The notes below the pieces were generated by a model. That model made no database searches and was not told where the DNA came from. It saw only the letters and a list, made by a program, of their open reading frames with translations. 64,000 nucleotides of DNA, taken from NCBI GenBank assembly GCA_963842445.1, contig CAWJHF010000002.1, forward strand, positions 173,858 to 237,857, in the 5' to 3' direction. This DNA comes from an uncultured Verrucomicrobiae bacterium. GTDB lineage: Bacteria > Verrucomicrobiota > Verrucomicrobiia > Limisphaerales > UBA11358. The position numbers and the translations under genes are program-made. Every line of letters begins with the position of its first letter. Positions within the stretch are counted from its first letter, which is position 1. Below, piece after piece: positions 747-40,618 of this stretch.

Positions 747-896
747 ATGGATGCTCTGGTCGGCAGAATGAAGCGTGAGCGGCAGAAATCTCGATACGTT
801 CGGGTTTACCATGACCACATCGAGGACGAGTTCGACGACGATGGCAATGAATACCACGATGGCAGCTTCATGGAGAATGACGACGACGGAGCATGA
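747..896 (+). CDS. hypothetical small acidic protein (49 aa)
   Basis: ATG at 747 in the frame of track ORF 678..896, with an acidic tail DEFDDDGNEYHDGSFMENDDDGA. Support is weak. Confidence 0.2.
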   Translation: MDALVGRMKRERQKSRYVRVYHDHIEDEFDDDGNEYHDGSFMENDDDGA

Positions 897-960
897 AAAC
901 AAATCACGGATTGCGGGTCGTTTACGCCATGGCACGACTGGCGGGCGTGACTGTAAACTT

Positions 961-2769
961 ATGTTGTTAATGGTCATTGAAGGGGCGGGACGCCGCAAAC
1001 AGGATAGACCTGGATTAACCCAATACCGCCGTGTCCACAGAGTCCTGGCATCTGACGCGGCCCTGAGCAGAAAGTTTGGACCCCTTGTCCTGGTTGAGCG
1101 CGACGGCGTGTCGGCCCAGTTCCCGAAGGCTGTTGTCGAACTGACCGAAGCCATTCATGCCGAAGGACTGAACATTTACAAACTAAACAAGCGGGACATA
1201 ATGAGGCGGGCCGCGCAAATGCTGATCCTCTCACCGGCAGCGCCTATTTCCAAAGAATCCGAGAGCGCAACAAACCAAAGCCAGAAACCCAAGGCCGCTG
1301 CGCCAAATGTGAGAGAAAGCAAAACGGTGAGTTCAGCACCCGCAGCCCCCAAAATCAGCAACTTTGCTGGATCGGCAGGCAAGCTAAAAACAGGCAGTAC
1401 TGCCGCCCCGCAGACGGACCGTAGCGGGGATGTCAAATTTGTCGAAAATTCCACCGGCGCGGCTGGTTCGACAACTTCGACAACTTCGACAGGGGGTCAC
1501 ACCCTGGAAATGGCCATCATTCCTGCCGACTCGCTGCTGGAAGATTACCGTCATTTTGCCCGTGACCAGTTGGAGAGCGCCGACAGTTACATCATCGGCT
1601 CGTTTCTGCCGGTCGTGGCGGCGTGCCTTGGCCGCCGGGTTCACTTCCCGTGGGCCAGCGAGCGGATATACCCGAACCTCTTTTCCATTCTGGCTGGCAA
1701 GTCCGGCGACCGAAAGTCCACGGCTATAAACCTAGCCGAGGCCGTTGCAACAGCACTGCTCAAACCTGAAAATTTTCTCCCGCACGATTGCAGCGTGGAG
1801 TCGCTGTTCGATGAATACGACCCCGGCTTCGGAGGCTCACCCGACAAACTCTTGATGGTGGACGATGCCAACAGCCTCCTCGGCACGTGGACCAAAAGCG
1901 GGTATGGCGAGCGCGTGTCACGACGGTTTCTGGACCTCTACGACTGCCAGCATCTCTCGGAGTCATTCCAGAAAAACAAGAAGGCCAGCGCGGATGGAAC
2001 CGGACGCCGGTTCATTCCTGAAACATCGACGAGCGTCGTTTTGGGGGCCACTTTCGACATCTGCCGGTTGCGGGGGCGGCAAATCAGTTCCGGCCTGCAA
2101 CGCCGCTTCCTGTTCTACGCCGCCGAGCGCCACGGGCGGTTCATTGCCAGTCCGCCGCCGGGCGACATGGCGCAGTTTAATGGCCTCGTGAAGGCGCTGA
2201 ACAGGCTCGCTGAACTGAAGGCCGAGTGCGCGTTCTCGGATCAGGCGGGCGTTCTGTGGGAGGCGTATCAACGGCAAAACCGGGAGCTGCTGAAAATCGA
2301 AGCAGACGAGGGCCGCCTGTCACGAATCAACGGCGCTCCCCGCCATGTGCAAAAAATCGCCATGCTCTTTGAGGCGGCCATCTGGGCGAGGCAGGACCGC
2401 CCGGCTTGGGACGGGGTCGTCCAGGCCACCACATTGCAGTTGGCCATCAACCATGTGACCCACTGCCTTGAAACCGCTGCGCGGCTGGACGCTTTGGCTG
2501 ACAAGGCGGAAATCACCACGGCGGCTGACGTGTTGTTGGCGAAAATCAGGCGTGATTTCAGGCTGCCGCAGCACCTTCGAGACGGGCGGATTTGGCTCAC
2601 CAAAACCGATTTGACCGCAAAGTATGCGCCGCATCCTGATCGTCCCCATTCCTGGAAACCAGATGACCTTTACTTGCGCCTAATACCCAATCTCATTGAG
2701 CACGGTCTGGCCCGCTTGGGCGAGCAGCAGGGCAAAAAAGTCTGGTACGGATTCGCGGTTGAGGACTGA
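961..2769 (+). CDS. P-loop NTPase, DUF3987-like (primase-associated helicase family of mobile elements)
   Basis: Degenerate Walker A LAGKSGDRKST and Walker B KLLMVDDANSL. The overall layout matches my recollection of DUF3987/YfjI-type proteins. The start is uncertain: the track ORF starts with GTG at 775, and I chose the ATG at 961 because the upstream part is low-complexity and overlaps 747..896. Confidence 0.5.
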   Translation: MLLMVIEGAGRRKQDRPGLTQYRRVHRVLASDAALSRKFGPLVLVERDGVSAQFPKAVVELTEAIHAEGLNIYKLNKRDIMRRAAQMLILSPAAPISKESESATNQSQKPKAAAPNVRESKTVSSAPAAPKISNFAGSAGKLKTGSTAAPQTDRSGDVKFVENSTGAAGSTTSTTSTGGHTLEMAIIPADSLLEDYRHFARDQLESADSYIIGSFLPVVAACLGRRVHFPWASERIYPNLFSILAGKSGDRKSTAINLAEAVATALLKPENFLPHDCSVESLFDEYDPGFGGSPDKLLMVDDANSLLGTWTKSGYGERVSRRFLDLYDCQHLSESFQKNKKASADGTGRRFIPETSTSVVLGATFDICRLRGRQISSGLQRRFLFYAAERHGRFIASPPPGDMAQFNGLVKALNRLAELKAECAFSDQAGVLWEAYQRQNRELLKIEADEGRLSRINGAPRHVQKIAMLFEAAIWARQDRPAWDGVVQATTLQLAINHVTHCLETAARLDALADKAEITTAADVLLAKIRRDFRLPQHLRDGRIWLTKTDLTAKYAPHPDRPHSWKPDDLYLRLIPNLIEHGLARLGEQQGKKVWYGFAVED

Positions 2770-4077: not shown

Positions 4078-5526
4078 ATGAAAAACTGGTTTGAAGTGGA
4101 CAAACAGGGACTGGCGAAAATCCTCGAACGGAAGGGCAAGGAATTCGTCGTGTTCGAGCTGATTCAGAATTCATGGGACGAGCCGGGCGTTACCCAAGTC
4201 GGTGTGTCGCTGGAATACGAAGGGCGGAACAAAGCCCGGCTCGTGGTCGAGGACGACGCCCCGGAAGGATTCAAAGACCTGGCCCATGCGTTCACGCTGT
4301 TTGCGGACTCGGCCAAGAAAGCCAATCCCGAACAGCGCGGGCGGTTCAACCTTGGCGAGAAGCTGGTGCTGGCTATCAGCGACGAAGTCACCATCCGCAC
4401 GACCAAAGGAACCATCCGCTTCGATGCCGAGGGCAGGCATCATCTGCGATCAAAGCAGGCGGTCGGCAGCCGGGTCGAATGTCTCCTGCGCCTGAAGGCG
4501 GACGAGTGCGCCGCCATCGAAGCGCAAGTCCGCAGGCTGATCCCGCCGCCACACATCACAACCATCTTCAACGGTGCCGCACTGCAATCGCAGCGGGTTG
4601 CCGACGAATTCAGGGCAACGCTGCCAACCGAGATCGCCGGTGCAGACGGGTTTCTGGCGCGGGCCGACCGCGAAACGACCGTCCGGCTCTTTGCCGTCGC
4701 GCCGGGCCAAACCGCCATGCTTTACGAACTGGGCATTCCGGTGGTGGAGACCGGCGACAAATGGCACTACGACATCGGGCAGAAAGTCCCACTGACACTC
4801 GACCGTGAGAACGTGCAGCCCAGTTTTCTTCGGCAGGTGCGTGTCGCCGTCTTCAACCGGATGCACGCCCAACTGTCGGCAGAGGATGTGAACAGTGGAT
4901 GGGTGGAAACGGCCATTGCTTCACCGGACTGCGCACTTGAAGCAGCGCAAAACTACGTCCGCCAACGTTTCGGAGAAAAACGGGTGAGCTTCGACCCATC
5001 CGACCCGGAGGCCAACAAACTTGCCGTCAGTCAGGGTTACACGGTCGTACATGGTTCGATGATGTCATCGGGCGCATGGAAAAACGCCAAAGCCGCCAGC
5101 GCCATCCAGCCTGCGGGTCAGGTCACACCCGGCCCGAAAGTCTGGACAGGCGAAGATGATCCCGATGCCGCGCTGTTCCATGACTGGATTCCCGAAGCAA
5201 AGTGGACGAACGGGATGCGCGAGATTGCGGATTTCGCCAAGTGCGTTGCCCAGAAAGTGCTGACGCGCCCGATCACGGTGAAGTTCTGCGCGACGCCGCA
5301 TCATCTGGGCGGCGCATCCTACGGCCCAAGCGGGGAACTGGTCTTCAACAAATTCCGGTTGGGCGCTGACTGGTTTGAGCGCGGGATCAACGAAGACGTG
5401 GTGCGGCTGCTCATCCACGAGTTCGGGCACCAGTGCAGCGCCGATCACCTGAGTTCTGAGTACCACGAAGCCCTGTGCCGGATCGGAGCAAAACTGTTCG
5501 CCTTGGCCCGGCGCGGTGAAGTGTGA
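4078..5526 (+). CDS. GHKL-type ATPase domain fused to a C-terminal HExxH (zincin-like) region
   Basis: N-box-like ELIQNSWDE, G1-like VEDDAPEGF and G2-like RGRFNLGEK in the first ~120 aa. C-terminal LLIHEFGHQ provides the HExxH motif. The ATG at 4078 is preceded by gaaagg; the track ORF starts at 4045. Confidence 0.6.
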   Translation: MKNWFEVDKQGLAKILERKGKEFVVFELIQNSWDEPGVTQVGVSLEYEGRNKARLVVEDDAPEGFKDLAHAFTLFADSAKKANPEQRGRFNLGEKLVLAISDEVTIRTTKGTIRFDAEGRHHLRSKQAVGSRVECLLRLKADECAAIEAQVRRLIPPPHITTIFNGAALQSQRVADEFRATLPTEIAGADGFLARADRETTVRLFAVAPGQTAMLYELGIPVVETGDKWHYDIGQKVPLTLDRENVQPSFLRQVRVAVFNRMHAQLSAEDVNSGWVETAIASPDCALEAAQNYVRQRFGEKRVSFDPSDPEANKLAVSQGYTVVHGSMMSSGAWKNAKAASAIQPAGQVTPGPKVWTGEDDPDAALFHDWIPEAKWTNGMREIADFAKCVAQKVLTRPITVKFCATPHHLGGASYGPSGELVFNKFRLGADWFERGINEDVVRLLIHEFGHQCSADHLSSEYHEALCRIGAKLFALARRGEV

Positions 5527-5538
5527 TAAACGAGACAG

Positions 5539-6084
5539 GTGACTGTTTCAAAGTCCAATCCAGTAGTGGAAAGAGACCTGATTTTTTACCAGTTCAGCCG
5601 CTTCAAAGTGGAACGCAGCGACTTCAGCCATTTCTTGGGCCTGTATGCGCCGGACATACTACCCACCGGCAGGCGGCAGCGGGAAATGATGGACAGCCTG
5701 ATGTTCGGCATCGAAGGTTGGGACAACGATCCTCGTGAAATCCACACGATCCCCGAAATCCTGCGGTTCTATTCAGCGTTCCATGACGCTTGGCCATACT
5801 GGCTCTACTTCTGCAACCTTGATGTGGATACGCTCAGGGCGATGACGATGTGCTGCCTGCCCTCAACCAACACGATGCAGGTGGACGGGCGAATACCGGT
5901 GGCAGTCACCTGCGATCCGCCCGACCTGTTGAATTTTCTCAAACGTGATTTCATGCCGATGGACCTGATGTGTGAACGGGCCGGGATTTTTGAAGAACGG
6001 ATTTACGACCGGACGAAGGCGGTGTTTGATTACTTCAACCTGCCCTTTCAGGCTGAACCGCTACCGGAGAAACGCCTTGCATGA
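5539..6084 (+). CDS. conserved hypothetical protein, paralogue A (about 60% identical by eye to 39574..40080)
   Basis: GTG start 12 nt after the upstream stop. Shared blocks with the paralogue include IFYQFSR.KVER.DFS.FLGLYAPD.LPTG, HTIPEI, AWPYWLY.CNLD and MCCLPS. Confidence 0.6.
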   Translation: MTVSKSNPVVERDLIFYQFSRFKVERSDFSHFLGLYAPDILPTGRRQREMMDSLMFGIEGWDNDPREIHTIPEILRFYSAFHDAWPYWLYFCNLDVDTLRAMTMCCLPSTNTMQVDGRIPVAVTCDPPDLLNFLKRDFMPMDLMCERAGIFEERIYDRTKAVFDYFNLPFQAEPLPEKRLA

Positions 6085-6446
6085 ATCGCCGCACGCTCAA
6101 GAGGCTTCGCACCAAGCGGCAGCCGCAACCGCATCACCATGTCTATGTCGTGCTGCTCGATCCGGCAGTTCGCAGAATGCGGAAGGTCCGTGCGGAAAAT
6201 CCCAAGCGCAATCCCAGGAAGCCCTGCGTGTATGTCGGCATGACCGGACTGACGCCGGAGGAACGTTTTGCAAATCACAAAAGCGGAATCAAAGCTGCTT
6301 CTCTGGTCAAACGCTACGGCATCCGCCTGCTGCCGGAACTCTACGCGCACCTGAACCCCATGCCGTTCGAGGCGGCGGTGCAGATGGAGAAGGATTTGGC
6401 GGAGGATTTGCGCCGGGCCGGGTTCACGGTCATGGGTGGGCATTAG
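6081..6446 (+). CDS. GIY-YIG-superfamily-like small protein
   Basis: ATGA start/stop overlap with 5539..6084. Sequence HVYVVLL...CVYVGMTGLTPEERFANHKSG resembles GIY...YIG...R...H, but with an unusually long spacer. Confidence 0.4.
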   Translation: MNRRTLKRLRTKRQPQPHHHVYVVLLDPAVRRMRKVRAENPKRNPRKPCVYVGMTGLTPEERFANHKSGIKAASLVKRYGIRLLPELYAHLNPMPFEAAVQMEKDLAEDLRRAGFTVMGGH

Positions 6447-8643
6447 CCGTTGCCAGCAACCGCGCCAGCAGCCCTGAAAACCGGTTTTCCGTCCGGTTGT
6501 TCTTCACCGCCATCGCCAGCGCCTTGCGCTGGCCGATGAGCACCACCAGTTTCTTTCCCCGCGTGATACCGGTGTAAACGAGATTGCGCTGCAACAGCAG
6601 GTACTGCTGCATCGCCAGGGGGATGACGACCGCCGGAAATTCCGATCCCTGCGATTTGTGGATGGTGATGGCGTAAGCCAGTGAAATCTCGTCCAGCTCG
6701 CCGTAGTCGTAAACGACCTCGCGCTGGTCGAAGCGGATGGTGACCTCCCGCTCGACGGAATCAATCTTGACGATCTGGCCGATGTCGCCGTTGAACACGT
6801 CCTTGTCGTAGTCGTTTTCAGTTTGGATCACCTTGTCCCGTGGCCGGAACTGCCAGCCGAACTTTTCCACGGACGGCTCGTCGGCGCGGGCCGGGTTGAG
6901 TTCCTGCTGGAGCCGCACGTTGAGTTCACGGATGCCCAGTGAACCTTTGTTCATCGGGCAGAGCACCTGTATGTCGCCGATGGGATCGAGCCGGAATCTG
7001 GCCGGGATGCGGGTCTTGACCATTTCCACGAGCGTCGAGGCGATCTGATCCGGCTCATTGCGCTCTATGAAGAAGAAATCCGACTCTCTACCTTTGGCTG
7101 GAACCTCTGGCATCTGACCTTCGTTGATCCGGTGCGCGTTGGTGATGATCCGGCTGTGCGCCGCCTGCCGGAAGACTTCAGTTAGGCGCACCACCGGCAC
7201 GACTTTGCTTTCGATCACATGCCGCAGCACCATGCCCGGCCCCACGGACGGCAACTGGTCGATGTCGCCCACCAAGAGCAGGCTGGCCTTCGATGGCAGG
7301 GCGCGGAGCAGGTGTGCCATGAGCACCACGTCCACCATCGAGGTTTCGTCCACGACCAGAAGGTCGCAGTCCAATGGCTTGGCTTCGTTCCGCGTGAAAC
7401 TGCCAGTGGCAGGCTGGACTTCGAGCAGGCGGTGGATGGTCTTGGCCTCGACGCCGGTCGCCTCGGACAGGCGCTTGGCGGCCCTGCCGGTGGGCGCACA
7501 CAGGAGGCAGCGCACTTTCTTGGCCCGGAGGATCAGCAGAATTGCGTTGACCAGGGTCGTCTTGCCCACACCGGGGCCGCCGGTGATGACCAGCGCCCGG
7601 CTCGTCAGGGCCAGCTTGAGCGCCTCGCGCTGGCTGGCCGCAAGCTCCTTGCCGGTCTTTTCCTGACACCAGACGACCGCCTTGTCGAAATCAATGGCCG
7701 GGAAGGCGGACGGCGAGCCGCAGAGGCTCCTGATCCGGCCCGCGATGATTTCCTCGGCCCGTTTCAGGTGCGGCAGGAAGATCAGTTCCTGCCCGTTGAT
7801 CGTTTCCTTGACCAGATCGTTGCTGGCCAGGGTGCGCTCCAGCGCCCCGGTCACGATCTTGTCGTCCACAAGCAGGAGCTTGCCCGCCTCGTCCTTGAGC
7901 AGTTCCACCGGCAGGGCACAGTGTCCGTCGCCGGTCGCCTCGATCAGGACATGGCTCAGCCCGGCGCAGGCCCGGAGCAGGGAATCCACCGGGATGCCGA
8001 TCTTCTGCGCAATCTGGTCGGCGGTTTTGAAACCGATGCCGTGAATGTCCTTGGCCAGCCGGTAGGGGTCGCTGCGCACCTTCTCGATGGCGTCCTCGCC
8101 GTAGGTCTTGTAGATGCGCACGGCCCGGCTGGTGCTCACGCCGTGGCTATGCAGGAACACCATGATCTGGCGGATGACCTTCTGCTCCGCCCAGGCGTCC
8201 TTGATCCTGTGCCTGCGCTTCGGCCCGATCCCGTCCACTTCCTCCAGCCGCGCCGAATGATTCTCGATGATGTCGAAGATGCTCTCACCAAACTTCGCCA
8301 CCAGCTTCTTGGCATACACCGGCCCGATGCCCTTGACCATGCCGCTGCCCAGATATTTTTCGATGCCTTCCCTGGTCGTCGGCGCGGTGCTGCTCAGCAT
8401 CTCGGCCCGGAACTGAAGGCCAAACTCCCGATCCTGCACCCATCGGCCTTCCGCCGTCATCCATTCACCGGCGCTGACCGAGGGCAGGGAGCCGACGACC
8501 GTAACCTGATCCCGGTGGCTCTTGGCTTTGACCTTGAGCACCGCGAAGCCGTTTTCCTCATTGAAGAAAGTGACGCGCTCGATCAGCCCGGAAAGACTTT
8601 CGGCGAACTGCTTGGACGGAGGATGTGCTTTCACCGGCATCAT
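6430..8643 (-). CDS. recD2: RecD2-type SF1B ATP-dependent DNA helicase
   Basis: Motifs ITGGPGVGKTT, LLVVDETSMVD, LLLVGDIDQLPSVGPG, AITIHKSQGSEFP and VYTGITRGKKLVVLIG. ATG at 8643; the track start at 8670 is TTG. Confidence 0.9.
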   Translation of the reverse strand: MMPVKAHPPSKQFAESLSGLIERVTFFNEENGFAVLKVKAKSHRDQVTVVGSLPSVSAGEWMTAEGRWVQDREFGLQFRAEMLSSTAPTTREGIEKYLGSGMVKGIGPVYAKKLVAKFGESIFDIIENHSARLEEVDGIGPKRRHRIKDAWAEQKVIRQIMVFLHSHGVSTSRAVRIYKTYGEDAIEKVRSDPYRLAKDIHGIGFKTADQIAQKIGIPVDSLLRACAGLSHVLIEATGDGHCALPVELLKDEAGKLLLVDDKIVTGALERTLASNDLVKETINGQELIFLPHLKRAEEIIAGRIRSLCGSPSAFPAIDFDKAVVWCQEKTGKELAASQREALKLALTSRALVITGGPGVGKTTLVNAILLILRAKKVRCLLCAPTGRAAKRLSEATGVEAKTIHRLLEVQPATGSFTRNEAKPLDCDLLVVDETSMVDVVLMAHLLRALPSKASLLLVGDIDQLPSVGPGMVLRHVIESKVVPVVRLTEVFRQAAHSRIITNAHRINEGQMPEVPAKGRESDFFFIERNEPDQIASTLVEMVKTRIPARFRLDPIGDIQVLCPMNKGSLGIRELNVRLQQELNPARADEPSVEKFGWQFRPRDKVIQTENDYDKDVFNGDIGQIVKIDSVEREVTIRFDQREVVYDYGELDEISLAYAITIHKSQGSEFPAVVIPLAMQQYLLLQRNLVYTGITRGKKLVVLIGQRKALAMAVKNNRTENRFSGLLARLLATANAHP

Positions 8644-8830
8644 GGTGCGGGCCAACCGTAGAACAGGCAAGCGTCGGGCGGGTCCGACAGAAAACGGACG
8701 CAGACGGGATGAGACTGATGGCGCTGGCCGACGCCGATTTGGAACCGATGCGGAAAGAAATCGCGCAGATGAGAGCGCGAAAGAAGAAAAGGCGCGTCGC
8801 GTGACGTTGCTGCTGCAATAGAGATAAATT

Positions 8831-9655: not shown

Positions 9656-9849
9656 TCGGTTTCAAGGCTTGAAGATTCAAATTAAGACACGACCGGACTA
9701 TAAAGTCCAGTCTGCGGTGCCATGATACAACGGCCCGTGTTGGTGTACGCTGATTGAAACTGCTGACGCACCTGCCGTGCCCGGCATTTCGCCGAACACT
9801 TTTTTCGCCAGGGCTTTCGTTTCTCCCCCGGTCATGCCATATTCCCGCC

Positions 9850-10254
9850 ATGCCGAACCACAAATCGGGCACCAGCTACTCGTTTTCTCAGCTTGTCAAG
9901 GCGTACAATGCAGACCCGCAGAGCGACACCGATGCACATTACCTCCTTTACCGGGACGACGAGATTCTCGCGCTGTGCCTACGCCACAAATACAACCACG
10001 ACCCCGGCGAAGTCTGGGTCGGGGATGCTCCGGTGGTAGCGGAATGGGGCAAGAAGCTCGCAGCCCTCAAGGACAAGAAAACGCTTCCGCTCTATTACTC
10101 ACAGCGCGGGCGCACCCTTTACGAGTACAGGGATCACCAGTTGATCGCCGGCGATACGGACGACCCGCAGGAACTCGCCAAGCGCAAAAGCCCTGTGCCG
10201 CTGTCCCGAATCGTATTCCTCAAACCGGTGGCCCATGCCGCCTTTGCCCGTTAG
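9850..10254 (+). CDS. hypothetical protein (134 aa), upstream partner of the HEPN-like gene
   Basis: ATG at 9850 within track ORF 9754..10254. The stop lies 2 nt before the next ATG at 10257. Confidence 0.5.
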   Translation: MPNHKSGTSYSFSQLVKAYNADPQSDTDAHYLLYRDDEILALCLRHKYNHDPGEVWVGDAPVVAEWGKKLAALKDKKTLPLYYSQRGRTLYEYRDHQLIAGDTDDPQELAKRKSPVPLSRIVFLKPVAHAAFAR

Positions 10255-10256
10255 CC

Positions 10257-10913
10257 ATGCCGAAAAATCTAAAGCCGTTAAAGATGGACTCTCCTGAAAA
10301 GTTCAGGGCGTTCCTTCACAGGTTGTGGGATGAATTGTATTGGGCAAACTTTCACTACGAATTGTTGAAAGAACTGTCGCGGCTTTGTGAAAAGCATAGG
10401 CGAACGGCCAATTTGTCCGCCGTTTTTTGGAACTATACTTTACGCGCACATCATCAGACTGCGATGGTCTATTTGCATCGAATCTATGACCAAAACAAGG
10501 AAAGTTTCAACCTGCACCGATTTCTTCTCACAGTCCGGGAAAACTGGGAGATATTCGATTCAGCAAATGTTCGCAAAAGGCGGCAAAGCGATCCTCATGT
10601 CGAAGGCTTAATGCGGGCAATTGGCGAGCTTGACCTGGCGCAACTCGACCGCGACATCACGTTTTCAAGTAATGAGAACGAGAAAGTGAAAAACCTCAAT
10701 ACTTGGCGTGACCGCGTCATCTTCCATAACGATGAAAGAGAGTTGTTCCGGCAGAAACCGTTTGAAGATGAGCATCCACCGCCGGACATTGAGATGCTCA
10801 TTGACCAGGGGTTTCAAATTCTAAATCGCTATTCTCAATTTTTCGACACGACTGTTTACAGCAAAGGATGTCGGGATTGGAAAGATATGAGATTCGTTTT
10901 TGAGCGCGGGTGA
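10257..10913 (+). CDS. HEPN-domain protein, AbiU2-like (abortive-infection type)
   Basis: An in-frame ATG at 10257 inside track ORF 9777..10913; the upstream part of that ORF overlaps 9850..10254 in another frame. Helical protein with WRDRVIFHNDE, an Rx4-6H HEPN-type motif. The AbiU2 assignment is from memory of that family. Confidence 0.45.
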   Translation: MPKNLKPLKMDSPEKFRAFLHRLWDELYWANFHYELLKELSRLCEKHRRTANLSAVFWNYTLRAHHQTAMVYLHRIYDQNKESFNLHRFLLTVRENWEIFDSANVRKRRQSDPHVEGLMRAIGELDLAQLDRDITFSSNENEKVKNLNTWRDRVIFHNDERELFRQKPFEDEHPPPDIEMLIDQGFQILNRYSQFFDTTVYSKGCRDWKDMRFVFERG

Positions 10914-11110: not shown

Positions 11111-11932
11111 ATGCCTAAAGATCATTTCGTTCCGCAGCACTATCTGCGGCAATTCGGTGTCGATGAGAAACGGATAGCTTTCGCAACACTGTCGCCGTAT
11201 CGGTTCATCGGGGCCGTTCCAATTGACCGGCAATGCCAAGAAAAGAATTTCTACGAAAAGGATAAGCCCTTGGACAAACTACTGTGGCAAAGCGAAAACG
11301 ACATTGCCCCGGTGCTATCACGGGTGATCCAAAGAAGGGATTTTGATCCAAAGGAGGCAGTTGCTCTCAAGCTGCTTGCTGCGATTTTTCATGTACGGAC
11401 CCGAAAGGCAGCGGAAATCGCCAAAGTCTTCCCGAAGTATGTGGCGCATGAAGTTATCAAACGAGCTATCAATCGTGGTGAACTGCCGCCGCCGCCCGAA
11501 GGTGAATTCACGGAGGAAATGATGGACTTTGGGGGAGTATCGGGTGTCCTGATACAGCAGGCGGTTTTATGTTGGATGGAAATGCAAACGCTCGAATGCA
11601 AACTGCTTCAGCCCGAACCGCCGACTTATTTTGTTACAAGCGATAATCCGGTCGTCATCTTGAATCAGTTTTGCGCCGATACAATGCCTCACCGCAGCTT
11701 CGCGGGATTCAGCATGTCAGGGTTTCAATTGTTACTGCCACTCAGTCCAAATCTTTGTTTGTGCCTTTATGATGCGAAAATCTACAAGGTCGGGAATCGA
11801 CGTGACCGGCTTGTGCCAATCTCGAAGCGTGATGTTGAGATTGTGAACGCACTCCAAATTCAATCGGCTGAGAAATGTCTCTATTTCCACGATCCGACGT
11901 TGGAGCCGGAAATCCGACGCCTTGTCGGTTGA
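11111..11932 (+). CDS. DUF4238 domain protein (possibly truncated by an in-frame TGA; the frame stays open to 12199)
   Basis: N-terminal HFVPQHYLRQF and internal TSDNPVV are signature-like for DUF4238. The same frame continues without stops from 11933 to the TAA at 12197-12199. Confidence 0.7.
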   Translation: MPKDHFVPQHYLRQFGVDEKRIAFATLSPYRFIGAVPIDRQCQEKNFYEKDKPLDKLLWQSENDIAPVLSRVIQRRDFDPKEAVALKLLAAIFHVRTRKAAEIAKVFPKYVAHEVIKRAINRGELPPPPEGEFTEEMMDFGGVSGVLIQQAVLCWMEMQTLECKLLQPEPPTYFVTSDNPVVILNQFCADTMPHRSFAGFSMSGFQLLLPLSPNLCLCLYDAKIYKVGNRRDRLVPISKRDVEIVNALQIQSAEKCLYFHDPTLEPEIRRLVG

Positions 11933-14300: not shown

Positions 14301-15866
14301 ATGATTCAGACTATGTTGAAATGGGTCGGGTCAATCCCTTTGATCCTGCGCATTGGTTTCCTGTGTTTATTTTCGACGGCCACGCTGCCTGGCCAGGGCA
14401 CGAATGCCCTTTCCCCAACCGATTTGCTTCAAAGCGGATGGAGTGAATTGTCGTCCAATAACTATATGGCGGCGGCGGTGTCCTTCCACGCAGCCGTCAT
14501 TGCCAATCCCACCAATGCGGAAGCGTATGCGGGTCTTGGGCGAAGTCAGTACCATTTGAAGGATTACCCGTGGGCGATCAGATACCTCGAACGGGCGCTG
14601 GCTTTGGAACCCGGCCACACGAACTGGCTGCTGTATCTGGGGGAAAGTTATTGTCTGGCGGGCGAACATACCAAGGCGACCAATCTATTTCAAAAATACG
14701 TGTCACTCCGCGCCGATGATGCGGAAGGATACAAGTGGTTGTCCTATGCCTTATCTGAGATGGCGCAATATGACGGGGCGGTGAGTGCGGCCAGACACGC
14801 CTTGACCCTCAATCCCACCAACACTTACTGCTACCGGCAATTGGGTTATTGCCTGGCACGGCTCAACCGCCATGACGACGCCGTCCAGGCGTTCCGTCAG
14901 GCGCTCGCCATCGACCCGAAAGACGGGGATGCCTACTTGCAGTGCGCGTTAAGCTTGTTGGCGGAAGAACGCTTGGGCGAGGCGACCACGAACCTTGAGA
15001 AAGCCTGCGAAATCAAGAAGAACAACCGGGCGGCGCATTGGCTGTTGTTTGGATGCTACCTCGGATCATTGCAGTACGAAAAAGCCTACCAGCTTTTTCC
15101 GGGGGTTTTTGCCATCGGCGGATGCGCCGCGCTCCTGGCTTACCTGATGGGGCTGGCATTTTTGCTGCCTTTAAGTTTCCGGGTTCGCCCCCAGGCGTTT
15201 CCGGGCATTGGGTTTTCTCTGGCCTGGCTGGCCGTGTATTTTGAAGGGCAGCTCGCGCTCTTTCTCGTTCTTGGGTTGCTTTCCCGGATCAAACCTGCTG
15301 AATCCCTTCTGGCTGGCGTCATCTTGGCCGGAATCCCGGTGGTGCTGGCGGGGATGCTCGGATTCCGCCAGCAACCCTGGGGCAAGCCCTTTGCCTGGCC
15401 GTTGCATCTGGGAACGAAAAAGACGATTGGACTTTGCCTGTTTGGGCTGGTTTTGATGGGGCTGTTTAACTGGGCGTATCTGACGTTGGTCCAGCGGATC
15501 ACGCACCAGCCCGCCCCCGTTCAGGAGGTGGAGCTTTTAATTAAATCCGCCTTGAAAGGCGATCCGCTGCTGGCATTTCTGTCCGTCGTCATCCTAGGGC
15601 CGGTGGTGGAAGAAATCCTGGTTCGGGGTCTGCTCTACGGTGCCTTGGAAAGACGACTGCCCACCGGTGGAACCATCATCGTCACTTCCTTGGTTTTTGC
15701 CCTGTATCATTTTCAAATGGTCTTTTTCATCCCGCTTTTTGGCGTCGGCGTCCTTCTGGGGTGGGCACGCGCCAAGACCGGATCAATCGGCCTGCCCATA
15801 TTGATTCATGTACTAAACAACGGGTTGTCCTTGTTGCTGGTTAAATTGGTTGAAAACGGCCTTTGA
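14301..15866 (+). CDS. TPR-repeat protein fused to a CPBP-family (CAAX/Abi) intramembrane glutamic endopeptidase
   Basis: Signal/TM segment followed by TPR-like repeats. C-terminal polytopic part carries the CPBP motifs GPVVEEILVRGLLYG, FALYHF and ILIHVLNNG. Confidence 0.8.
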   Translation: MIQTMLKWVGSIPLILRIGFLCLFSTATLPGQGTNALSPTDLLQSGWSELSSNNYMAAAVSFHAAVIANPTNAEAYAGLGRSQYHLKDYPWAIRYLERALALEPGHTNWLLYLGESYCLAGEHTKATNLFQKYVSLRADDAEGYKWLSYALSEMAQYDGAVSAARHALTLNPTNTYCYRQLGYCLARLNRHDDAVQAFRQALAIDPKDGDAYLQCALSLLAEERLGEATTNLEKACEIKKNNRAAHWLLFGCYLGSLQYEKAYQLFPGVFAIGGCAALLAYLMGLAFLLPLSFRVRPQAFPGIGFSLAWLAVYFEGQLALFLVLGLLSRIKPAESLLAGVILAGIPVVLAGMLGFRQQPWGKPFAWPLHLGTKKTIGLCLFGLVLMGLFNWAYLTLVQRITHQPAPVQEVELLIKSALKGDPLLAFLSVVILGPVVEEILVRGLLYGALERRLPTGGTIIVTSLVFALYHFQMVFFIPLFGVGVLLGWARAKTGSIGLPILIHVLNNGLSLLLVKLVENGL

Positions 15867-16237: not shown

Positions 16238-19200
16238 ATGAATTCTGGCCAACTCAAATTAGTTGATGACCGTCCGCTTTCCGAGCGTCTTCGCGCTTAC
16301 GGCTGTACGGATTTCGTTCGTCTTGACGATGGCCTCACGACTCCCGAACAACTCGACTATCTCGACTTGTTACCACGCCGGAGCACTTCGCCGGTCACAG
16401 CGGTTGTTGAGCACCAAGGAACAGCACTCCTCTACCTCGTGGATGCGTGTGGCAATATCACGACCGACGCTACTACGCTTGCGCAGTTGCAGCGGCAACT
16501 TGCGAACCGCAGCGACCCTGCTTGGCTTGGTGTACTGCGGCCCGGCTCACTGGAGATACATCCCATTGGCTTTCACGAAAGCAGCACGACTGTTCCAGTC
16601 GAGACCGTAGTCGAAAAAGATGATCGCGCTCCATTTTTCTTTCAAAGTCTAGCGCATGGCACTTTTGCACAGAACGAACGACTTAAAGGCTCGGATTATG
16701 TTTTCAAAAAAATCTATGGCCTGCTGACGCAGACGACGGACGCCTACGTTCCCGACAACAAACTCGAACCGCTTGAAGTTCTTTCCATGGCTGGCCGGGC
16801 GCTGTTCTTCCGATTCCTCATCGACCGCAGGATCGTTTTGCGAGATGAGCGAAAAGAAATCTGCCCGGCGTCGGACGGTTTGAAGGACGCTTTTGCCAAC
16901 GCTGAAAAAGCCGCCATGACTTCCGCGTGGCTCGACCAAACTTTCAATGGCGATTTCCTTCAACTGATTGACGAATCTATTTCTGCCGATGACCGTACCG
17001 CGCGGCAAGACGCATATTTGCAATTTTACAGACGAATCGAGCGGCGGGCGGGCAAAAAATTCTTTGACCACCTTCATGCCATTCTGAACGGCTGGCACGC
17101 GACGGGTGGCGGCATTCAGCAAGAATTAGACTGGGGTGATCTCGACTTTGCACACATACCAGTTGGCGTGTTGAGTCAGGTCTATGAAAGCTTCAGCCAT
17201 CGTGCCGATGCACGTACGGCGAAAAAAACGAGCGTTCATTACACTCCTAGAACCATCGCTCGGCTGATCGTAGATCAAACTTTCGCCGCCGCCAAAGACC
17301 CTGCTAACGCCCGTGTGCTGGATGCTGCGTGCGGAGCAGGCATCTTCCTTGTTCTTGCCTTCCGCCGTCTCGTGCGGGAGCGATGGCAGCACGACGAACA
17401 GCGCCCCGACACAAAAGCCATTCAGCAAATTCTTTACGGTCAGCTTCGGGGCTTTGACATCAGCGAATCTGCTCTCCGCCTTGCCGCGCTCGCGCTCTAC
17501 ATAACCGCGATTGAGGTAAACGGAACTCAGCGTCCACCAAAGGTGCTCAAGTTTCCGCGAAATCTGCGCAACGAAGTGCTTCACTACTTCGGCGATGTGC
17601 CCCCGGCGAAAGATACTGCTGCAAAGCAGCCTGCGAAGGCCACGTTTACGCTCGGCAGCCTCGGCCCGCGCGTGTCGTCGGAATTCAACAAGTCATTCGA
17701 CATCGTGCTTGGAAATCCGCCGTGGACGCGACTCCGCGAAGACGAACCGCAGAACACCGAACAAAGAGCTGCCGGGCGTGCAGCCAAGAAAGAACCGGCA
17801 AAAGTCGAGACTGACCTGCTGAACGAGGAATTCACGGCCATTGGTCAGCGTGTCCTTCGCGTGCGCGGTCTCGCTGAGTTGGCTGATAGCTACGAAAACC
17901 CCGACAAGAATCCTGACCTGCCTTTCCTCTGGAGGGCAACAGAGTGGGCTAAGGACGGTGGTCTTATTGCATTCGCACTTCCTGCACGCATCTTTGGTCG
18001 TACCACAGGCAAAGGCTACAAAGCATGGCGTGCTGTGCTCCATAGCATATCTCTGACCGGACTCATCAATGGCGCTGATCTGCGAAAGACCGCAGTGTGG
18101 GAGGGTATTGATATGCCGTTCTGCTTGTTGTTTGCTCGTAACGCACTCCCTCAAAACAAACACCGCTTTTATTATGCGACTCCACTCTACGAGCCTGAGC
18201 AAAACCGGGATGGCCGTTTCCGTATAGATTATGAAGCAACGCAGCCGGTGAGCATTGAGCGCGTGGAGAAACAGCCGTGGATATTAAAAACGCTGTCGCT
18301 CGGCACTTGGCGCGATGTTGAGGTGATGGAAAAGTTGACAAAGGCGTTTCAACGAACGCTTGCAGATGAGTGGAGGGTCTGGAATCCGAAGGCGGACAAG
18401 ACGCACCAAGGTTACAATCGTTCGCCTAATTTGAAACAAAAGTCAGCGATGTTTTTCAAAGAATTAAAAGACTTTGAACCGCCGCAAGAAGGCTTCAACA
18501 TTCAATACAGCGAATTAAAATCTTACTTCAAAAAATACAAAACGAACTCTGCTCACGGGCCTCGCACTGAAGCACTCTATGCAGCGCCGCTCGTCATTGT
18601 TCCAAAAGCTCCGGGTGATGTTGTGAACCGTCCCAAGGCATATCTATCGAGAAAACCGCTTACTTTTTCTCAGAGCTACTACGGTTATTCCTGTAATGGC
18701 CATCCCGATGCCAAAACTCTTGCCGCTTTGATTTATCTTATTCCGCAGAGTGATTTGTTTCGCTACTTCACCCTAATGGTTAGTGTGTCCCAGGGTGCGG
18801 ACCACATGATCTTCACCAAGCAAGATTTGGATACTCTCCCATTCCCAGACGTTGCCAAACTTCCAGCTCAAACAAAGAATGCCATCCGCAAGCTTGCTCG
18901 CCGTCTCGAAAGAGACGCAAAAAAACCGTGGGACGAAATTGACTCACTGCTCTTTCGCCTTTATGGCTTACAAGACAATGCGATTCAAGTCGTCCGAGAA
19001 ACCCTTTTTGCCGCCGCAGCCTATCGCCGCCAGGGCCGGGCCGCGCTGGACCGGACAACCCGCAAAGACCGCGCTCCATTCCGAAACACACTGCGTGAAC
19101 TACTAGAACCGTATTTCGACGTGTGTGGCCAGCATGTCGCCGTTGAAGAACCAAAGTCGCAGCCTGACGCTTGGGAGCAGCCGTGGTTCTTTGTCGCCAT

Positions 19201-21015: not shown

Positions 21016-21031
21016 ATCAACCTGAGTCGGC

Positions 21032-30232: not shown

Positions 30233-30236
30233 AAAT

Positions 30237-36384: not shown

Positions 36385-36485
36385 GCGGTCTTTTAGAACA
36401 TCGCCCCGTGGGTGTAAAGCCTTCGCCGCGCCGCTACCGGACGCCACCACGCCCCGCTCGGTGATCCCGGACAGGCAAGGGAGAG

Positions 36486-36554
36486 CGAACCGCCTGCGGC
36501 GTGGATTTGAACCTGAACTGGGACCGGCTGATGGCGGATGTGGGTTCCCACTGC
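36486..36554. repeat. Right copy of the 68-nt imperfect inverted repeat (partner at 339..406)
   Basis: See 339..406. Lies in the 260-nt divergent intergenic region between the helicase (start 36384) and the DUF5069 gene (start 36644). Confidence 0.9.
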
Positions 36555-36643
36555 CAACCGGCGGGCTGATTCCAAATTGTAACAGGGTTGACCTTGCCAA
36601 TCAGCGAAGCGATGGGCATGGTGTCATCAAAGAAAGAAACTTT

Positions 36644-37508: not shown

Positions 37509-39479
37509 CTACTGGGTCTTTTCGCCGTTCTGGAACATCTCCAGCGCGATCAGGAACGGCTCGTGCAGGTCCATCCTCAGATCGTGCTCCGGCGCGATGC
37601 GCTTGAAACCCGCGAACATCAGGCACATCAGGTTCAGCCCGCTGAACTTTTCGCCGGGAAGGGATTTGAGCGTGTATTTCTGATCCGGCGAGGCATAGTC
37701 GAGGCCGTTGCGACCGACCAGCCCGATCTCCAGGGCGATCTCACGAATCTTTTCCACCGGCAGCTTGTCGTAGCGTTGCAGCGCATCCAGCAGGAAATAC
37801 ACGGCGGGCGTATGCTTCCGCTTCAGCAATTCAGGATTCGTCGAACCTTCCTTGCGGGGCGGCTCGGTCACGGTGTGTGTGCCTGGATCAATCTTCCATT
37901 CATACCAGCCCCGCAAGCCGACCATGTCGGCAAACTCGTCCACCAGGTCGTATTCATCGCCGGGACCAAGCTGCGGAAAGCGACTCCGCCAATGCTGGAA
38001 CAGGCGCTGTGAAAGCGGGAACGCATCCGACCGCTGATAGTGGGCGGCATAGTTGCAGGCTCCCCGATAAAGGTTGTCCAGGAACAGGCAGTACGCTCCG
38101 TTCAAGGCCAGACCCGCCCGCAGAATCAGCTTGGGGGTTACCTCCAGCACTTTGGGGTTCATATTCGATTCCAAGGCGTCCTGAACACCCATCCGCAATG
38201 CCACAAACTGCATTGCCGCCAGCACAGGCATCCGCTCCCGCAGCCGGGTTTCGATCAGCATGTCGAGCGGGCAGTTAAACAGGAAGCCTGCCAATCCCCG
38301 GATAAGTGCCGTTATCAATCCTTGGGAGGCATCAGCCGGAAATCCTTTGCGCTGCAAATTTCGGATGTCGTTTTCCAGACGCTGAAGGGCGCTCTGTTCT
38401 GTCTTGTCGGTCGTGACGAGGAACCGGTTCTTGCCCGCTTGCCGGGCCTCGGCCTCCAATTGCAGGTGGGTCAGCTCGTGCGCCGTCTGGTGTGTCCGCA
38501 AGTCTTCCGGCAAGCCAGTTCGGAACGTGATCAGGTGATGGTCCCGTCCATGCTTCCATGCCATCTGGATCGTGGCGCTCGTCTTGTCCTTGAACTCGCC
38601 CTCCGTCACCCGCACCGGATAACCGGTCAACCGCTCCAGTTCCGCCCGAAAGTTCTCGACGGCCTTGAACGCCTCCGACTGCTGCTGTTTCACCAGTTCG
38701 TCCTGAACTGCGCCGTAGAGCGTGCGGGCCTGATCGAAGACGTGTTTGGACCGGGCGTCCTGCATCCGGGCGTTGGCGAAAAGCCGGTCGAGTGAACGGG
38801 CGGCCAAAGGAAGCTGGCCGGTGCGCTGGAACGTGACGCCCAGTCCGTAGTAGGGGTTGGGCAGATCAGGGTTGGACGAGATCGCCTGCTCGAACAGTTT
38901 CACTGCCTCCTCGGTCTGGCCACGTTGGGCGGTCATGGCGGCGAGGCCGTTGAGCGCCCACGAATCGTCCGGTGCAATCTCCAGGGCGCGGCGCAGGAAT
39001 TTTTCGGCGGTTGCCCAGTCTTTTTCGCTTTTGGCGTAGAGATTGCCCAGGACAACCCAACCCCAGGGATCGCCCGGATTCAGCCGGAGAACCTCGATGA
39101 GATGATTCTTGGCACCCTCAATGTCACCTGTTTCCATGCAGGACATCGCCAGGTCACGGCGGGCCTTGTGAAAAGATGGGTTCAGTTCGAGCACCCGCTT
39201 CCAGAGCGAGATCGCCTTGTCGTAGCTGCCTTCGGCGGCTCGCTTGGCCGCCCGCTCGGCCAGGCGTTCAGCTTCGTGTTGAGCGCCCGGCGATTCCTCG
39301 GAAAACGAGATGGTCACGGTGTGTTCACCGAACTCGATCTGAAGCGACTGGCGCAGGAACTGAAACTGGCGGCGGACCATCGCTTCAACGATAGCGTTGT
39401 CGGGGCGCTGCGCCGGAACTGGCTGGCCCTCGAACTCGAACAGATCATTGATTTGAAGTGTGACTGACTTCACCTGCAT
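37509..39479 (-). CDS. TPR-repeat protein with a C-terminal HExxH-containing domain
   Basis: TPR-like repeats (AISLWKRVLELNP, AKNHLIEVLRLNP, AEKFLRRALEIAP, AVKLFEQAISSNP) followed by HQTAHELTHLQLE. ATG at 39479; the track start is 39521. Confidence 0.7.
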   Translation of the reverse strand: MQVKSVTLQINDLFEFEGQPVPAQRPDNAIVEAMVRRQFQFLRQSLQIEFGEHTVTISFSEESPGAQHEAERLAERAAKRAAEGSYDKAISLWKRVLELNPSFHKARRDLAMSCMETGDIEGAKNHLIEVLRLNPGDPWGWVVLGNLYAKSEKDWATAEKFLRRALEIAPDDSWALNGLAAMTAQRGQTEEAVKLFEQAISSNPDLPNPYYGLGVTFQRTGQLPLAARSLDRLFANARMQDARSKHVFDQARTLYGAVQDELVKQQQSEAFKAVENFRAELERLTGYPVRVTEGEFKDKTSATIQMAWKHGRDHHLITFRTGLPEDLRTHQTAHELTHLQLEAEARQAGKNRFLVTTDKTEQSALQRLENDIRNLQRKGFPADASQGLITALIRGLAGFLFNCPLDMLIETRLRERMPVLAAMQFVALRMGVQDALESNMNPKVLEVTPKLILRAGLALNGAYCLFLDNLYRGACNYAAHYQRSDAFPLSQRLFQHWRSRFPQLGPGDEYDLVDEFADMVGLRGWYEWKIDPGTHTVTEPPRKEGSTNPELLKRKHTPAVYFLLDALQRYDKLPVEKIREIALEIGLVGRNGLDYASPDQKYTLKSLPGEKFSGLNLMCLMFAGFKRIAPEHDLRMDLHEPFLIALEMFQNGEKTQ

Positions 39480-39573
39480 AGGATTATGCCCGATCACCGC
39501 ATCTGCGGCGAACCAAAACAACGGTTTGAACCGAGTCGCCGAAACGAAGCCTGCGCGTTACAATCAGGAAGGC

Positions 39574-40080
39574 ATGGCCAGCGACATCATCTTCTACCAG
39601 TTTTCCCGCCCGAAGGTGGAGCGGTGCGACTTCAGCGATTTCCTGGGCCTGTATGCGCCGGACCAACTGCCCACCGGCACTCGGCTGCGGGAAAAGATGG
39701 ACAGGATGATCTTTGTCATTGACGGCTACAACGATGATGACCGTGAAGTTCATACCATCCCGGAGATTCGCGGGTTCTACACGGCGTTCCACCTGGCATG
39801 GCCCTACTGGCTCTACTATTGCAATCTGGACACCGAAGCGCTGAAGATGATAGTGATGTGCTGCCTGCCTTCGATTGCGGCTATGAAGATGGATGGCAAG
39901 CCGAATGTTGCGGTGAAATACGACCCGCTCGAACTGCTTCGCTTCGTCAGCCAGGACTTTGGTCCGATGAACGTAATGTGTGAGCAGGCAGAAATGTCTG
40001 AACGGATGATCTACGACCGAAGCAAGGCCGTGTTCGAGTATTTCGGGATGCCGTTCAACGCCGAACCGCCGCTTGAATGA
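39574..40080 (+). CDS. conserved hypothetical protein, paralogue B of 5539..6084
   Basis: The ATG at 39574 is preceded by caggaagg. See paralogue A for the shared blocks. Confidence 0.6.
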   Translation: MASDIIFYQFSRPKVERCDFSDFLGLYAPDQLPTGTRLREKMDRMIFVIDGYNDDDREVHTIPEIRGFYTAFHLAWPYWLYYCNLDTEALKMIVMCCLPSIAAMKMDGKPNVAVKYDPLELLRFVSQDFGPMNVMCEQAEMSERMIYDRSKAVFEYFGMPFNAEPPLE

Positions 40081-40093
40081 TCATTTCCATGTT

Positions 40094-40618
40094 ATGACTG
40101 AGCAAGAATTTCACAAAATGTATCCGCTCATCATCGAGTGGATTCGCAACACGCTGGCGCAACATGCACCGGCTGCACGATCTGTGGCCTCACTGGGATT
40201 CAAACGCCTGCCGCATTACTACCATCAGGACACTCTGTCTGCTGCAAGGGTGGTTGTTGTGCCCAAGGTGCCGGTGCCGCCGCTGTCAGCAATGGGCCTG
40301 GAGCGATTTAGCAGCTTTGAGAAGATGGACGCTGGTGGCATCACCTACCTCGACACATATTTCGTGCGTGCCGACCAAAGCCACATCGAGTCGCTTCATT
40401 TTCACGAACTGGTTCACATCATCCAGTGGAGGCTGCTTGGTCCTGAAACGTTCCTGGCTCTTTATGCTGACGGTTTGGAACGCTTCGGCTACCGGAACAG
40501 TCCGCTGGAAAAGATGGCCTACGACTTGCAGGAGCGGTTTGGGCATGAAGCGCAGCCATTCAACGTAGAGACCGTTTGCGAGCCATTGATCCGGGAGATG
40601 AGGAACACACGCGGATGA
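40094..40618 (+). CDS. hypothetical HExxH-motif protein (putative zincin-like)
   Basis: SLHFHELVHIIQW. ATG at 40094 lies 13 nt after the paralogue B stop; an alternative TTG is at 40073. Confidence 0.45.
   Translation: MTEQEFHKMYPLIIEWIRNTLAQHAPAARSVASLGFKRLPHYYHQDTLSAARVVVVPKVPVPPLSAMGLERFSSFEKMDAGGITYLDTYFVRADQSHIESLHFHELVHIIQWRLLGPETFLALYADGLERFGYRNSPLEKMAYDLQERFGHEAQPFNVETVCEPLIREMRNTRG

Follow-up and report, generated by a model that had tools for sequence, protein, structure and literature searches.

Three genes on the forward strand, here called A, B and C, converge on a gene for the helicase RecD2 between positions 4078 and 8643 of a 64,000-nucleotide stretch of DNA from an uncultured Verrucomicrobiae bacterium (contig CAWJHF010000002.1); this whole stretch is referred to below as the window. 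An earlier note on the same DNA had proposed that an ATPase, a putative peptidase, a putative nuclease and a helicase form one anti-phage module at this place. Our analysis points instead, with a probability of roughly 0.6, to a composite, in which the 4.6-kb stretch would consist of three independent things that came to abut by chance in a variable region of a Verrucomicrobia-type chromosome that resembles an island. A belongs to an autonomous gene family of phages, prophages, plasmids and other mobile elements. B and C make up the shortest version of a lineage-specific string of genes in a fixed order, of which a second B locus in the window is another partial version. The recD2 gene encodes a canonical RecD2 helicase, and is a syntenic neighbour and not a component of a module. 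The four-gene system is not a real unit and is not worth pursuing as a new defence operon.

Two parts of the locus are of interest in their own right. A represents a defined family which fuses a GHKL ATPase to a zincin motif and which is spread across phages (very large ones included), prophages, plasmids and many phyla; should it prove to be a protease under the control of ATP, the known GHKL-effector designs (rIIA, GHKL-Shedu and Tiamat) would be joined by one with a protease as effector. The other is a recurrent, uncharacterised string in Verrucomicrobia-type contigs, built round a Crr6-like protein and ending in a small GIY-YIG-like protein.

Distribution and neighbours of gene A

The A family comprises at least 2629 clusters of relatives in at least 8 phyla. 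The 80 genome loci that were compared come from Verrucomicrobiota, Planctomycetota, Chloroflexota, Acidobacteriota, Actinomycetota, alpha-, beta- and gammaproteobacteria and others, and their homologues are all full length, with 37-78% identity. IMG/VR yielded 159 matches, and 13 of the 80 contigs listed there are at least 200 kb long; one homologue lies in an uncultured 485-kb phage. The gene is also carried by three proteobacterial plasmids (of Methylibium, Rhodovastum and Bosea), and on the first of these it sits inside a phage-like block of methyltransferase, dUTPase, NADAR and DUF4326 genes. The annotated plasmid records that were examined label the family only as 'hypothetical' or 'ATP-binding protein'.

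Clustering of the neighbouring genes, over 75 and then 164 A loci, returned no conserved partner. In these 164 loci the genes that turn up most often beside A encode a serine recombinase (18 loci) and a tyrosine integrase (11 loci), the others being mostly ORFans, together with helix-turn-helix (HTH) proteins, methylases, kinases, PAPS reductases, a topoisomerase and head proteins. Besides the window, B or C is found within 10 kb of A in three loci only (L015, L016 and L093), and no viral A locus has either gene within that distance. RecD2 is near A in a single locus, as an unrelated copy at 29% identity. The earlier note had taken scattered homologues with no conserved co-occurrence as the pattern that would speak against its module, and for A this is the pattern that the neighbourhood tally gives. 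Since no partner is conserved in 164 loci and the gene is found alone in phages and mobile elements, A is regarded as autonomous. The note's fallback, that the genes could belong to the replication or maintenance machinery of a mobile element, holds for A in one half, as it is a gene of phages, plasmids and islands, but nothing ties it to replication or maintenance.

A collinear homologue with 23% identity is present on pAQ6, a plasmid of Picosynechococcus PCC 7002 (L278 6394-12865). It is flanked by a DisA_N-domain gene and a gene for a CHAT-domain protein of 1378 amino acids (aa), with TPR, sigma-70 and DUF1822 genes near. This locus looks like a multi-gene conflict system, and the cyanobacterial-plasmid branch of A hints at recruitment into larger systems of this kind.

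Some side observations concern the surroundings of A. In six A loci (L221 7241-8680 and five others), a 479-aa protein with the motif GQFGSGNK is encoded about 0.9 kb from A, usually downstream, and it may be another GHKL-like or nucleotide-binding paralogue. In two different genomes the same variable island, bounded by an ImuB/DnaE2-LexA-DUF72-Mrr block and a DUF2779-integrase block, holds an A homologue in one case (L001) and a pair of an HTH and a B-SEC-C gene in the other (L008), and so looks like an insertion hotspot with exchangeable cargo.

The B–C pair and its gene string

In the first neighbourhood look-ups the homologues of A, B and C were each found in different contexts. The associations of B were then counted in a B-centred sample of 80 metagenome contigs. 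C lies downstream of B in 27 of the 69 copies with at least 400 nucleotides (nt) of downstream sequence, directly adjacent in 16 and 61-1500 nt away in 11. Where at least 1.5 kb is available downstream (41 loci), C is found within 3 kb in 20, a DUF1186-SEC-C gene in 12, an Smr-like gene in 9 and a small HExxH gene in 7. Upstream of B, roughly every second locus has a TPR/U307 gene, and 7 of 39 have an XRE-HTH gene. The order of these genes is constant, namely (TPR) XRE-HTH > B > small HExxH > DUF1186-SEC-C > Smr-like > C, while the internal members come and go; B is the anchor gene and C the terminal gene of the string, which has so far been seen in Verrucomicrobia-type contigs only. The trio of TPR, B and small HExxH genes, which is also present at the second B locus of the window (Table 1), recurs in many metagenome contigs.

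B and C are thus a recurrent pair of closely spaced genes on the same strand, and they would be co-transcribed. A is upstream of B in only 2 of 39 B loci (about 5%), and, with no conserved partner on the A side either, the four-part module of the earlier note is not upheld: co-occurrence of B and C stands, membership of A and RecD2 does not. C was also met without B, in five independent contexts, of which three have an Smr-like gene upstream. Within the literature that could be searched, no papers were found for DUF1186 or DUF1817, and nothing relevant on SEC-C, Smr and GIY-YIG together.

Four proteins are encoded upstream of one C homologue, by a tyrosine integrase (L010 2838-8366). Two of them, a 287-aa HATPase_c protein and a 613-aa TOP6A/Spo11-Toprim protein, form an island-borne pair like that of Topo VI, which is a candidate for a different GHKL-containing system.

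The recD2 gene and its relics

The identity of recD2 given in the earlier note is secure, as its product scores 896 bits against the equivalog TIGR01448 (cut-off 500) and contains the whole set of Pfam domains, i.e., OB_YrrC, HHH_RecD2, HHH_5, AAA_19/30, SH3_13 and UvrD_C_2. The convergent junction of C and recD2 recurs in L115 and in L177-186, where recD2 is represented by its last 60-170 codons only. Relics of this kind, spanning aa 680-739 or 573-746, lie near C or B in L177-186, L173 and L115, at a distance of 4.4 kb from B–C in L173, and their end points vary between loci (6621, 6643 and 6684 in window coordinates). L143 has a seemingly intact recD2, which runs off the end of the contig and is oriented divergently with respect to B.

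Relics beside C with varying ends argue for a decaying ancestral synteny and not for function. It would follow from such a history that the 3' end of recD2 was ancestrally adjacent to C. This is the simplest account of the junction, and it requires neither a functional partnership nor a fixed attachment site.

Protein A, a GHKL ATPase with a zincin motif

In an alignment of 18 A homologues with 54-89% identity, the residues expected of a GHKL (Bergerat-fold) ATPase are kept. GHKL motif I (ExxxNxxD) is present with E27, N31 and D34 invariant, and the glycine motifs of the ATP lid, D59...G64-F65 and R87-G88-R-F-N/D-x-G93-E-K, are invariant or nearly so; the lid motif aligns with GRFGIG of sacsin. 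In the beta domain that follows, the pair Q235-K236 is invariant and may supply the gamma-phosphate lysine. The AlphaFold2 (AF2) model of A, built on the homologue alignment, is confident, with a mean predicted local distance difference test (pLDDT) value of 82.9. When it was searched against the PDB with Foldseek, it matched Hsp90, TRAP1, MORC2/3/4, MutL and GyrB N+M fragments at E values from 5e-10 to 1e-6, and both the model and these matches show a Bergerat fold followed by a transducer domain. In BFVD, one true viral homologue was found (E 2e-31); next come two unnamed or uncharacterised viral proteins, an uncharacterised Erwinia phage protein among them, and then many rIIA-like GHKL proteins.

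At the sequence level, matches to named families are weak and confined to the first ~120 residues. Pfam HATPase_c_3 reaches 23.5 bits against a cut-off of 25 (6e-5), the NCBIfam sacsin N-terminal domain 26.5 bits against 50 (6.8e-6), and in a PDB profile search sacsin appears at E 0.19. As these scores lie under the curated cut-offs, A is a divergent member of the GHKL superfamily outside those named families. The GHKL assignment itself is solid, and the proposal of the earlier note, which had suggested the Foldseek comparison as a check, is confirmed on this point by the invariant motifs, the model and the Hsp90/TRAP1/MORC/MutL matches.

The C-terminal domain carries the zincin motif HExxHxxxxDH, in which H447, E448, H451 and H457 are invariant and D456 is at least 90% conserved among the 18 homologues. 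The HExxH, likewise read correctly in the earlier note, is a conserved motif that persists even in the 23%-identical homologue of pAQ6, as HEAAHAMNMHH. In the AF2 model it stands at the end of helix 439-450, with beta strands before it, and the last ~100 residues (helix, beta strands, HExxH helix, helix) have the layout of a small zincin. A profile match of the C-terminus to myroilysin was not significant (E 0.8), no Pfam peptidase family matches A, and the fold search with the whole model was dominated by its GHKL half. An invariant motif in a plausible secondary-structure setting is consistent with a peptidase, and the domain is described here as a putative one.

Some close A homologues of 564-636 aa (P0042, P0051, P0055, P0061 and P0069) have an N-terminal extension of the DUF6166 family (PF19663), and a separate DUF6166 protein occurs once among the neighbours of A.

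Proteins B and C

The B of the window has no family match of its own in Pfam, PADLOC, NCBIfam or PHROG. An exhaustive profile search gathered 1626 B representatives, and among 44 diverse relatives of B, 15 match PF08847 (Crr6/DUF1817), the best at 6.3e-11; by this transitive link B is placed as a distant member of the Crr6/DUF1817 superfamily. CRR6/DUF1817 is a plant and cyanobacterial factor needed for assembly of the chloroplast NDH complex. The gene context of B, with XRE, TPR, zincin and small nuclease genes, is wholly different, and a role in NDH assembly is not transferable. The AF2 model of B is poor (pLDDT 58), and Foldseek on this poor model gave no fold match (best E 2.8); PDB profile searches with two B alignments returned nothing meaningful. 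Some close relatives bear a C-terminal SEC-C motif, and the B domain also forms the C-terminal part of three larger proteins (P0491, P0397 and P0414), one with a GAP1-N1 N-terminal fragment and two with TPR repeats. One hypothesis is that B acts as a non-enzymatic adaptor or chaperone-like partner, co-transcribed with C. The idea that B is always partnered by a zincin was considered and set aside, as the HELTH motif of the window TPR/U307 protein is degenerate at the equivalent position of one U307 sequence.

C has 7196 relatives, of which the best 120 are all ~121 aa long and 78-86% identical; several are named 'predicted GIY-YIG superfamily endonuclease' by the Joint Genome Institute (JGI). 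The protein consists of a basic N-terminal tail and then a putative minimal GIY-YIG core of the Slx1/YhbQ type. Across 19 sequences Y22, Y51, G53, R62, H66 and E103 are invariant, which reproduces the residue order of GIY-YIG nucleases as a pattern match only. In this respect C resembles the bacterial Slx1/YhbQ-type enzymes, which are likewise small and stand-alone, with the order Y...Y-x-G...R...H...E and without a C-terminal Asn; C lacks this Asn too, as members of the Slx1 branch typically do (PMC1564403). The annotation of E. coli YhbQ reads 'DNA damage response nuclease'. C differs from these enzymes in the basic N-terminal tail, in an insertion of ~25 basic residues between the two Tyr strands, and in scores below the Pfam, NCBIfam and hhalign thresholds.

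Pfam GIY-YIG gives 17.6 bits on C against a cut-off of 22.6, with only aa 44-76 aligned, and 14 of 19 C relatives have matches that are also below threshold (best 0.0013). NCBIfam has no match for C, and the sole match in a PDB profile search was a His-tag artefact. With hhalign, only the YIG-R-H stretch could be aligned to E. coli YhbQ, at a probability of 2%, which is not significant, and the comparison with an annotated GIY-YIG protein of the Rhodovastum plasmid was not significant either. Of the earlier GIY-YIG claim the residue order is retained, but statistical significance is not, every profile test being below threshold or negative. The pattern is suggestive, and C is called GIY-YIG-like, and unproven, on this ground; it may be a small YhbQ/Slx1-type nuclease.

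Proposed mechanism and rival explanations

In the composite that we favour, A is a gene that stands on its own and moves horizontally, chiefly with phages, prophages and plasmids, and its product would be a single-chain, ATP-gated metalloprotease. The GHKL head would dimerise with ATP, the transducer lysine would couple the nucleotide state to the C-terminal protease, and the protease would cleave some protein of the host or of the phage in the course of phage–host conflict. It may act for the phage, in counter-defence or takeover, or for the lysogen, in exclusion. The very large viral contigs, together with DNA-modification and nucleotide-metabolism genes as neighbours, make us lean slightly to the phage side, while positions beside recombinases fit 'moron' genes expressed by a lysogen. 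A more ambitious proposal, which we advance tentatively and would put somewhat below an even chance, is that A constitutes an unrecognised, very widespread family of ATP-gated metalloproteases of phages and mobile elements, each a single-gene conflict weapon, and that, separately, the HTH–B–zincin–DUF1186-SEC-C–Smr–C string is a new regulated small-nuclease module. Such a weapon would cleave host immune or housekeeping proteins for a phage, or abort or exclude infection for a lysogen.

Several observations weigh against a chance composite. A full A or a 3' relic of it lies just upstream of the HTH-B or TPR gene in L136, L155, L006 and L176, and the order A-B-C is repeated in a 921-nt contig from another sample. 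Such proximity of A and B is more than would be expected by chance; members of one sub-lineage may share it by descent, and a loose functional tie could also play a part. Several lineages have recD2 or its relics within 5 kb of B or C, which may stand to one side of the helicase gene or to the other. B has HExxH proteins of three kinds as neighbours, namely A, the TPR protein and the one of 181 aa, and so could work with zincins. The C-centred sample is small, with its five independent contexts, and the protease and nuclease activities are predicted from motifs.

Three other explanations were weighed against the composite. The module of the earlier note, in which A, B, C and possibly RecD2 make up one anti-phage system of ATPase/protease sensor, adaptor, nuclease effector and helicase, has in its favour the tightly packed genes on one strand with an ATGA overlap, the defence-island setting, and the recurrence of A-(HTH)-B order in L136 and L277 and of A relics upstream of B in L155 and L006. 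It is nevertheless very improbable, given that B, C and RecD2 are all missing beside A in ~160 of 164 loci and in phages, that B–C occur without A in ~95% of loci, and that C persists beside truncated recD2. Moreover, B and C are 70-85% identical over very many contigs, which is unusually conservative for defence genes. A search for a catalogued system with PADLOC-DB v2 (2023 release) found none: B and C have no match, RecD2 is met by generic RecD models only, and A only by a weak TmtA match (E 6e-5) that covers ~97 aa of a 1486-position model and reflects the GHKL motifs alone. Tight packing and an ATGA overlap within a defence island are insufficient to infer a system.

It is likewise unlikely, though less so, that the true unit is the B-centred string, i.e., XRE-HTH, B, small zincin, DUF1186-SEC-C, Smr-like and C, working as a regulated conflict or stress module in which, for example, a repressor and protease switch, as in ImmR/ImmA or CapH/CapP, controls small nuclease effectors, and in which the zincin domain of A occasionally replaces the small zincin. 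The constancy of the order under swapping of internal members speaks for it, as do the overlap of an XRE gene with B that many loci show, the presence at the distal end of one or other of two small genes of nuclease type (Smr-like and GIY-YIG-like), fusions of B domains to TPR and to a GAP1-N1-bearing protein elsewhere, and integrases that are often near; regulators of immune operons that combine an HTH with a metallopeptidase are of a known kind, as reported in a preprint (10.1101/2022.04.27.489752). However, neither the Smr nor the GIY-YIG assignment reaches its threshold, the small HExxH protein has no match in ImmA/IrrE families and only a faint one to eCIS_core/DUF4157, B has no assigned function, and PADLOC has no match for B or C, the only string members that the scan covered. 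A housekeeping or stress operon of the chromosome would account just as well for the high conservation and for the synteny with recD2. We also find it quite doubtful that one integrative element, inserted at the 3' end of recD2, carries the DUF3987 gene, A, B and C as cargo, with A, B and C serving its replication or maintenance. A DUF3987/primase-like gene does lie 1.3 kb upstream of A, recD2 3'-end relics adjoin C in other contigs as they would at an attachment site, and integrases are found in several homologous islands. Yet the window contains no second recD2 3' end and no convincing direct repeats, and the relic ends differ, as fits decay by deletion and not a fixed attachment core; the junction is kept as an attachment site at low probability only. 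None of the other A, B or C homologues has DUF3987 beside it, an element of this kind would have its left end beyond the window, and A, B and C are unlike known replication or partition proteins.

Relation to known systems

A resembles rIIA, in which a GHKL part is joined to a variable C-terminus, and the GHKL-effector defence proteins in the logic of its design, and is a member of none of these families. Like T4 rIIA it is phage-borne, a single polypeptide, and similar in its N-terminal GHKL and transducer fold, and rIIA-like proteins make up much of the named BFVD matches. In contrast to rIIA, which has about 650-850 aa, A has only 482 and ends in a domain with a zincin motif, and no rIIB-like or other fixed partner was found in A loci. 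There is no relationship at the sequence level either, with no PHROG match at E <= 0.1, and membership of the rIIA family was rejected on this basis, leaving a GHKL resemblance of the fold.

A parallel in architecture may also be drawn with VcSduA and with TmtA of Tiamat. VcSduA is a Shedu protein of type I-D, with GHKL and a DUF4263 nuclease (PMC12137116). In these proteins, as in A, a GHKL ATPase is fused to an effector domain and encoded by a stand-alone gene in islands or prophages, whereas the effector of A is a putative metalloprotease and not a nuclease. The N-terminal ATPase modules of sacsin, Hsp90, MORC and MutL are the best sequence and fold matches for aa 1-240 of A, but the sequence matches are all below family cut-offs and the C-terminal half of A has no counterpart in them.

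Locus layout and genomic setting

Direct reading of the window reproduced the open reading frames (ORFs), motifs and overlaps of the earlier note, with one correction. In A, the motifs ELIQNSWDE, RGRFNLGEK and HEFGH begin at aa 27 (nt 4156), aa 87 (nt 4336) and aa 447 (nt 5416), and its ATG at 4078 agrees with the MKNWFEVDK start of A homologues. B had been placed at 5539..6084, 12 nt after A. Its 3' end stands, and so does the ATGA (6081-6084) in which the stop of B and the ATG of C overlap, but the start probably does not: the alternative GTG at 5539 would yield 181 aa, and the database copy of B and all B homologues begin with M(E/S)RDLIFYQ, which corresponds to the GTG at 5566. With this start the gap between A and B is probably 39 nt. 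The 17-nt overlap between the stops of C (6446) and recD2 (6430) was found as described.

As the note had also described, a DUF3987-like gene lies upstream of A and the region is otherwise full of defence genes. A dense island extends from 9777 to 36600 to the right of recD2, with the DUF3987/primase-like gene to the left (Table 1). The latter is a mobile-element replication-type gene; it was found beside no other A homologue, tblastn matching it in the window only, and the small ORFs that flank it and A have no match in Pfam.

Table 1. Features of the locus, of protein A and of the surrounding DNA (positions are those of the window unless amino acids or another contig are given).
Feature	Position	Strand	Basis or remark
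DUF3987 / primase-helicase-like gene, upstream of A	775..2769	+	Pfam DUF3987 2.3e-13; PHROG DNA primase 4.9e-13
Gene A, GHKL ATPase–zincin-motif protein	4078..5526	+	482 aa; TGA ends at 5526
A, GHKL (Bergerat-fold) ATPase domain	about aa 1-150		
A, transducer-like beta domain	about aa 160-235		invariant Q235-K236
A, helical linker	about aa 245-375		
A, C-terminal zincin-like domain	H447-E-F-G-H451...D456-H457		
Gene B, distant Crr6/DUF1817 (PF08847) relative	5566..6084	+	172 aa
Gene C, GIY-YIG-like protein	6081..6446	+	121 aa
recD2, SF1B helicase	6430..8670	-	TIGR01448 equivalog; full RecD2 domain set
recD2 relics in other contigs	about 3617-3796 in L177 (L177-L186); 1453-1632 in L173; 2779-3273 in L115		76-88% identical at best stretch
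HEPN AbiU2 domain	in ORF 9777-10913		
DUF4238	11111-11932		
521-aa protein, TPR repeats and C-terminal Rce1-like CAAX-type intramembrane protease domain	14301-15866		
Type IIG-like methylase/restriction endonuclease	16238-19432		
Endonuclease-effector-like protein	20215-21069		
hsdR, type I restriction-modification	21032-23989		
hsdS, type I restriction-modification	23982-25190		
AbiU-like protein	25239-26999		
hsdM, two genes	27028-28530 and 30237-31745		
PDC-S11 candidate	28532-30253		
PDC-S28 candidate	33793-36600		
Second B neighbourhood	37509..40618	mixed	partial copy of B string
TPR protein with HELTH motif	37509..39521	-	Pfam TPR
B paralogue, 63% identical to B	about 39574..40080	+	tblastn, alignment
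181-aa HExxH protein overlapping B paralogue	40073..40618	+	ORF

The true start of recD2 is probably a few codons inside the TTG-initiated ORF from which its position is given in Table 1.

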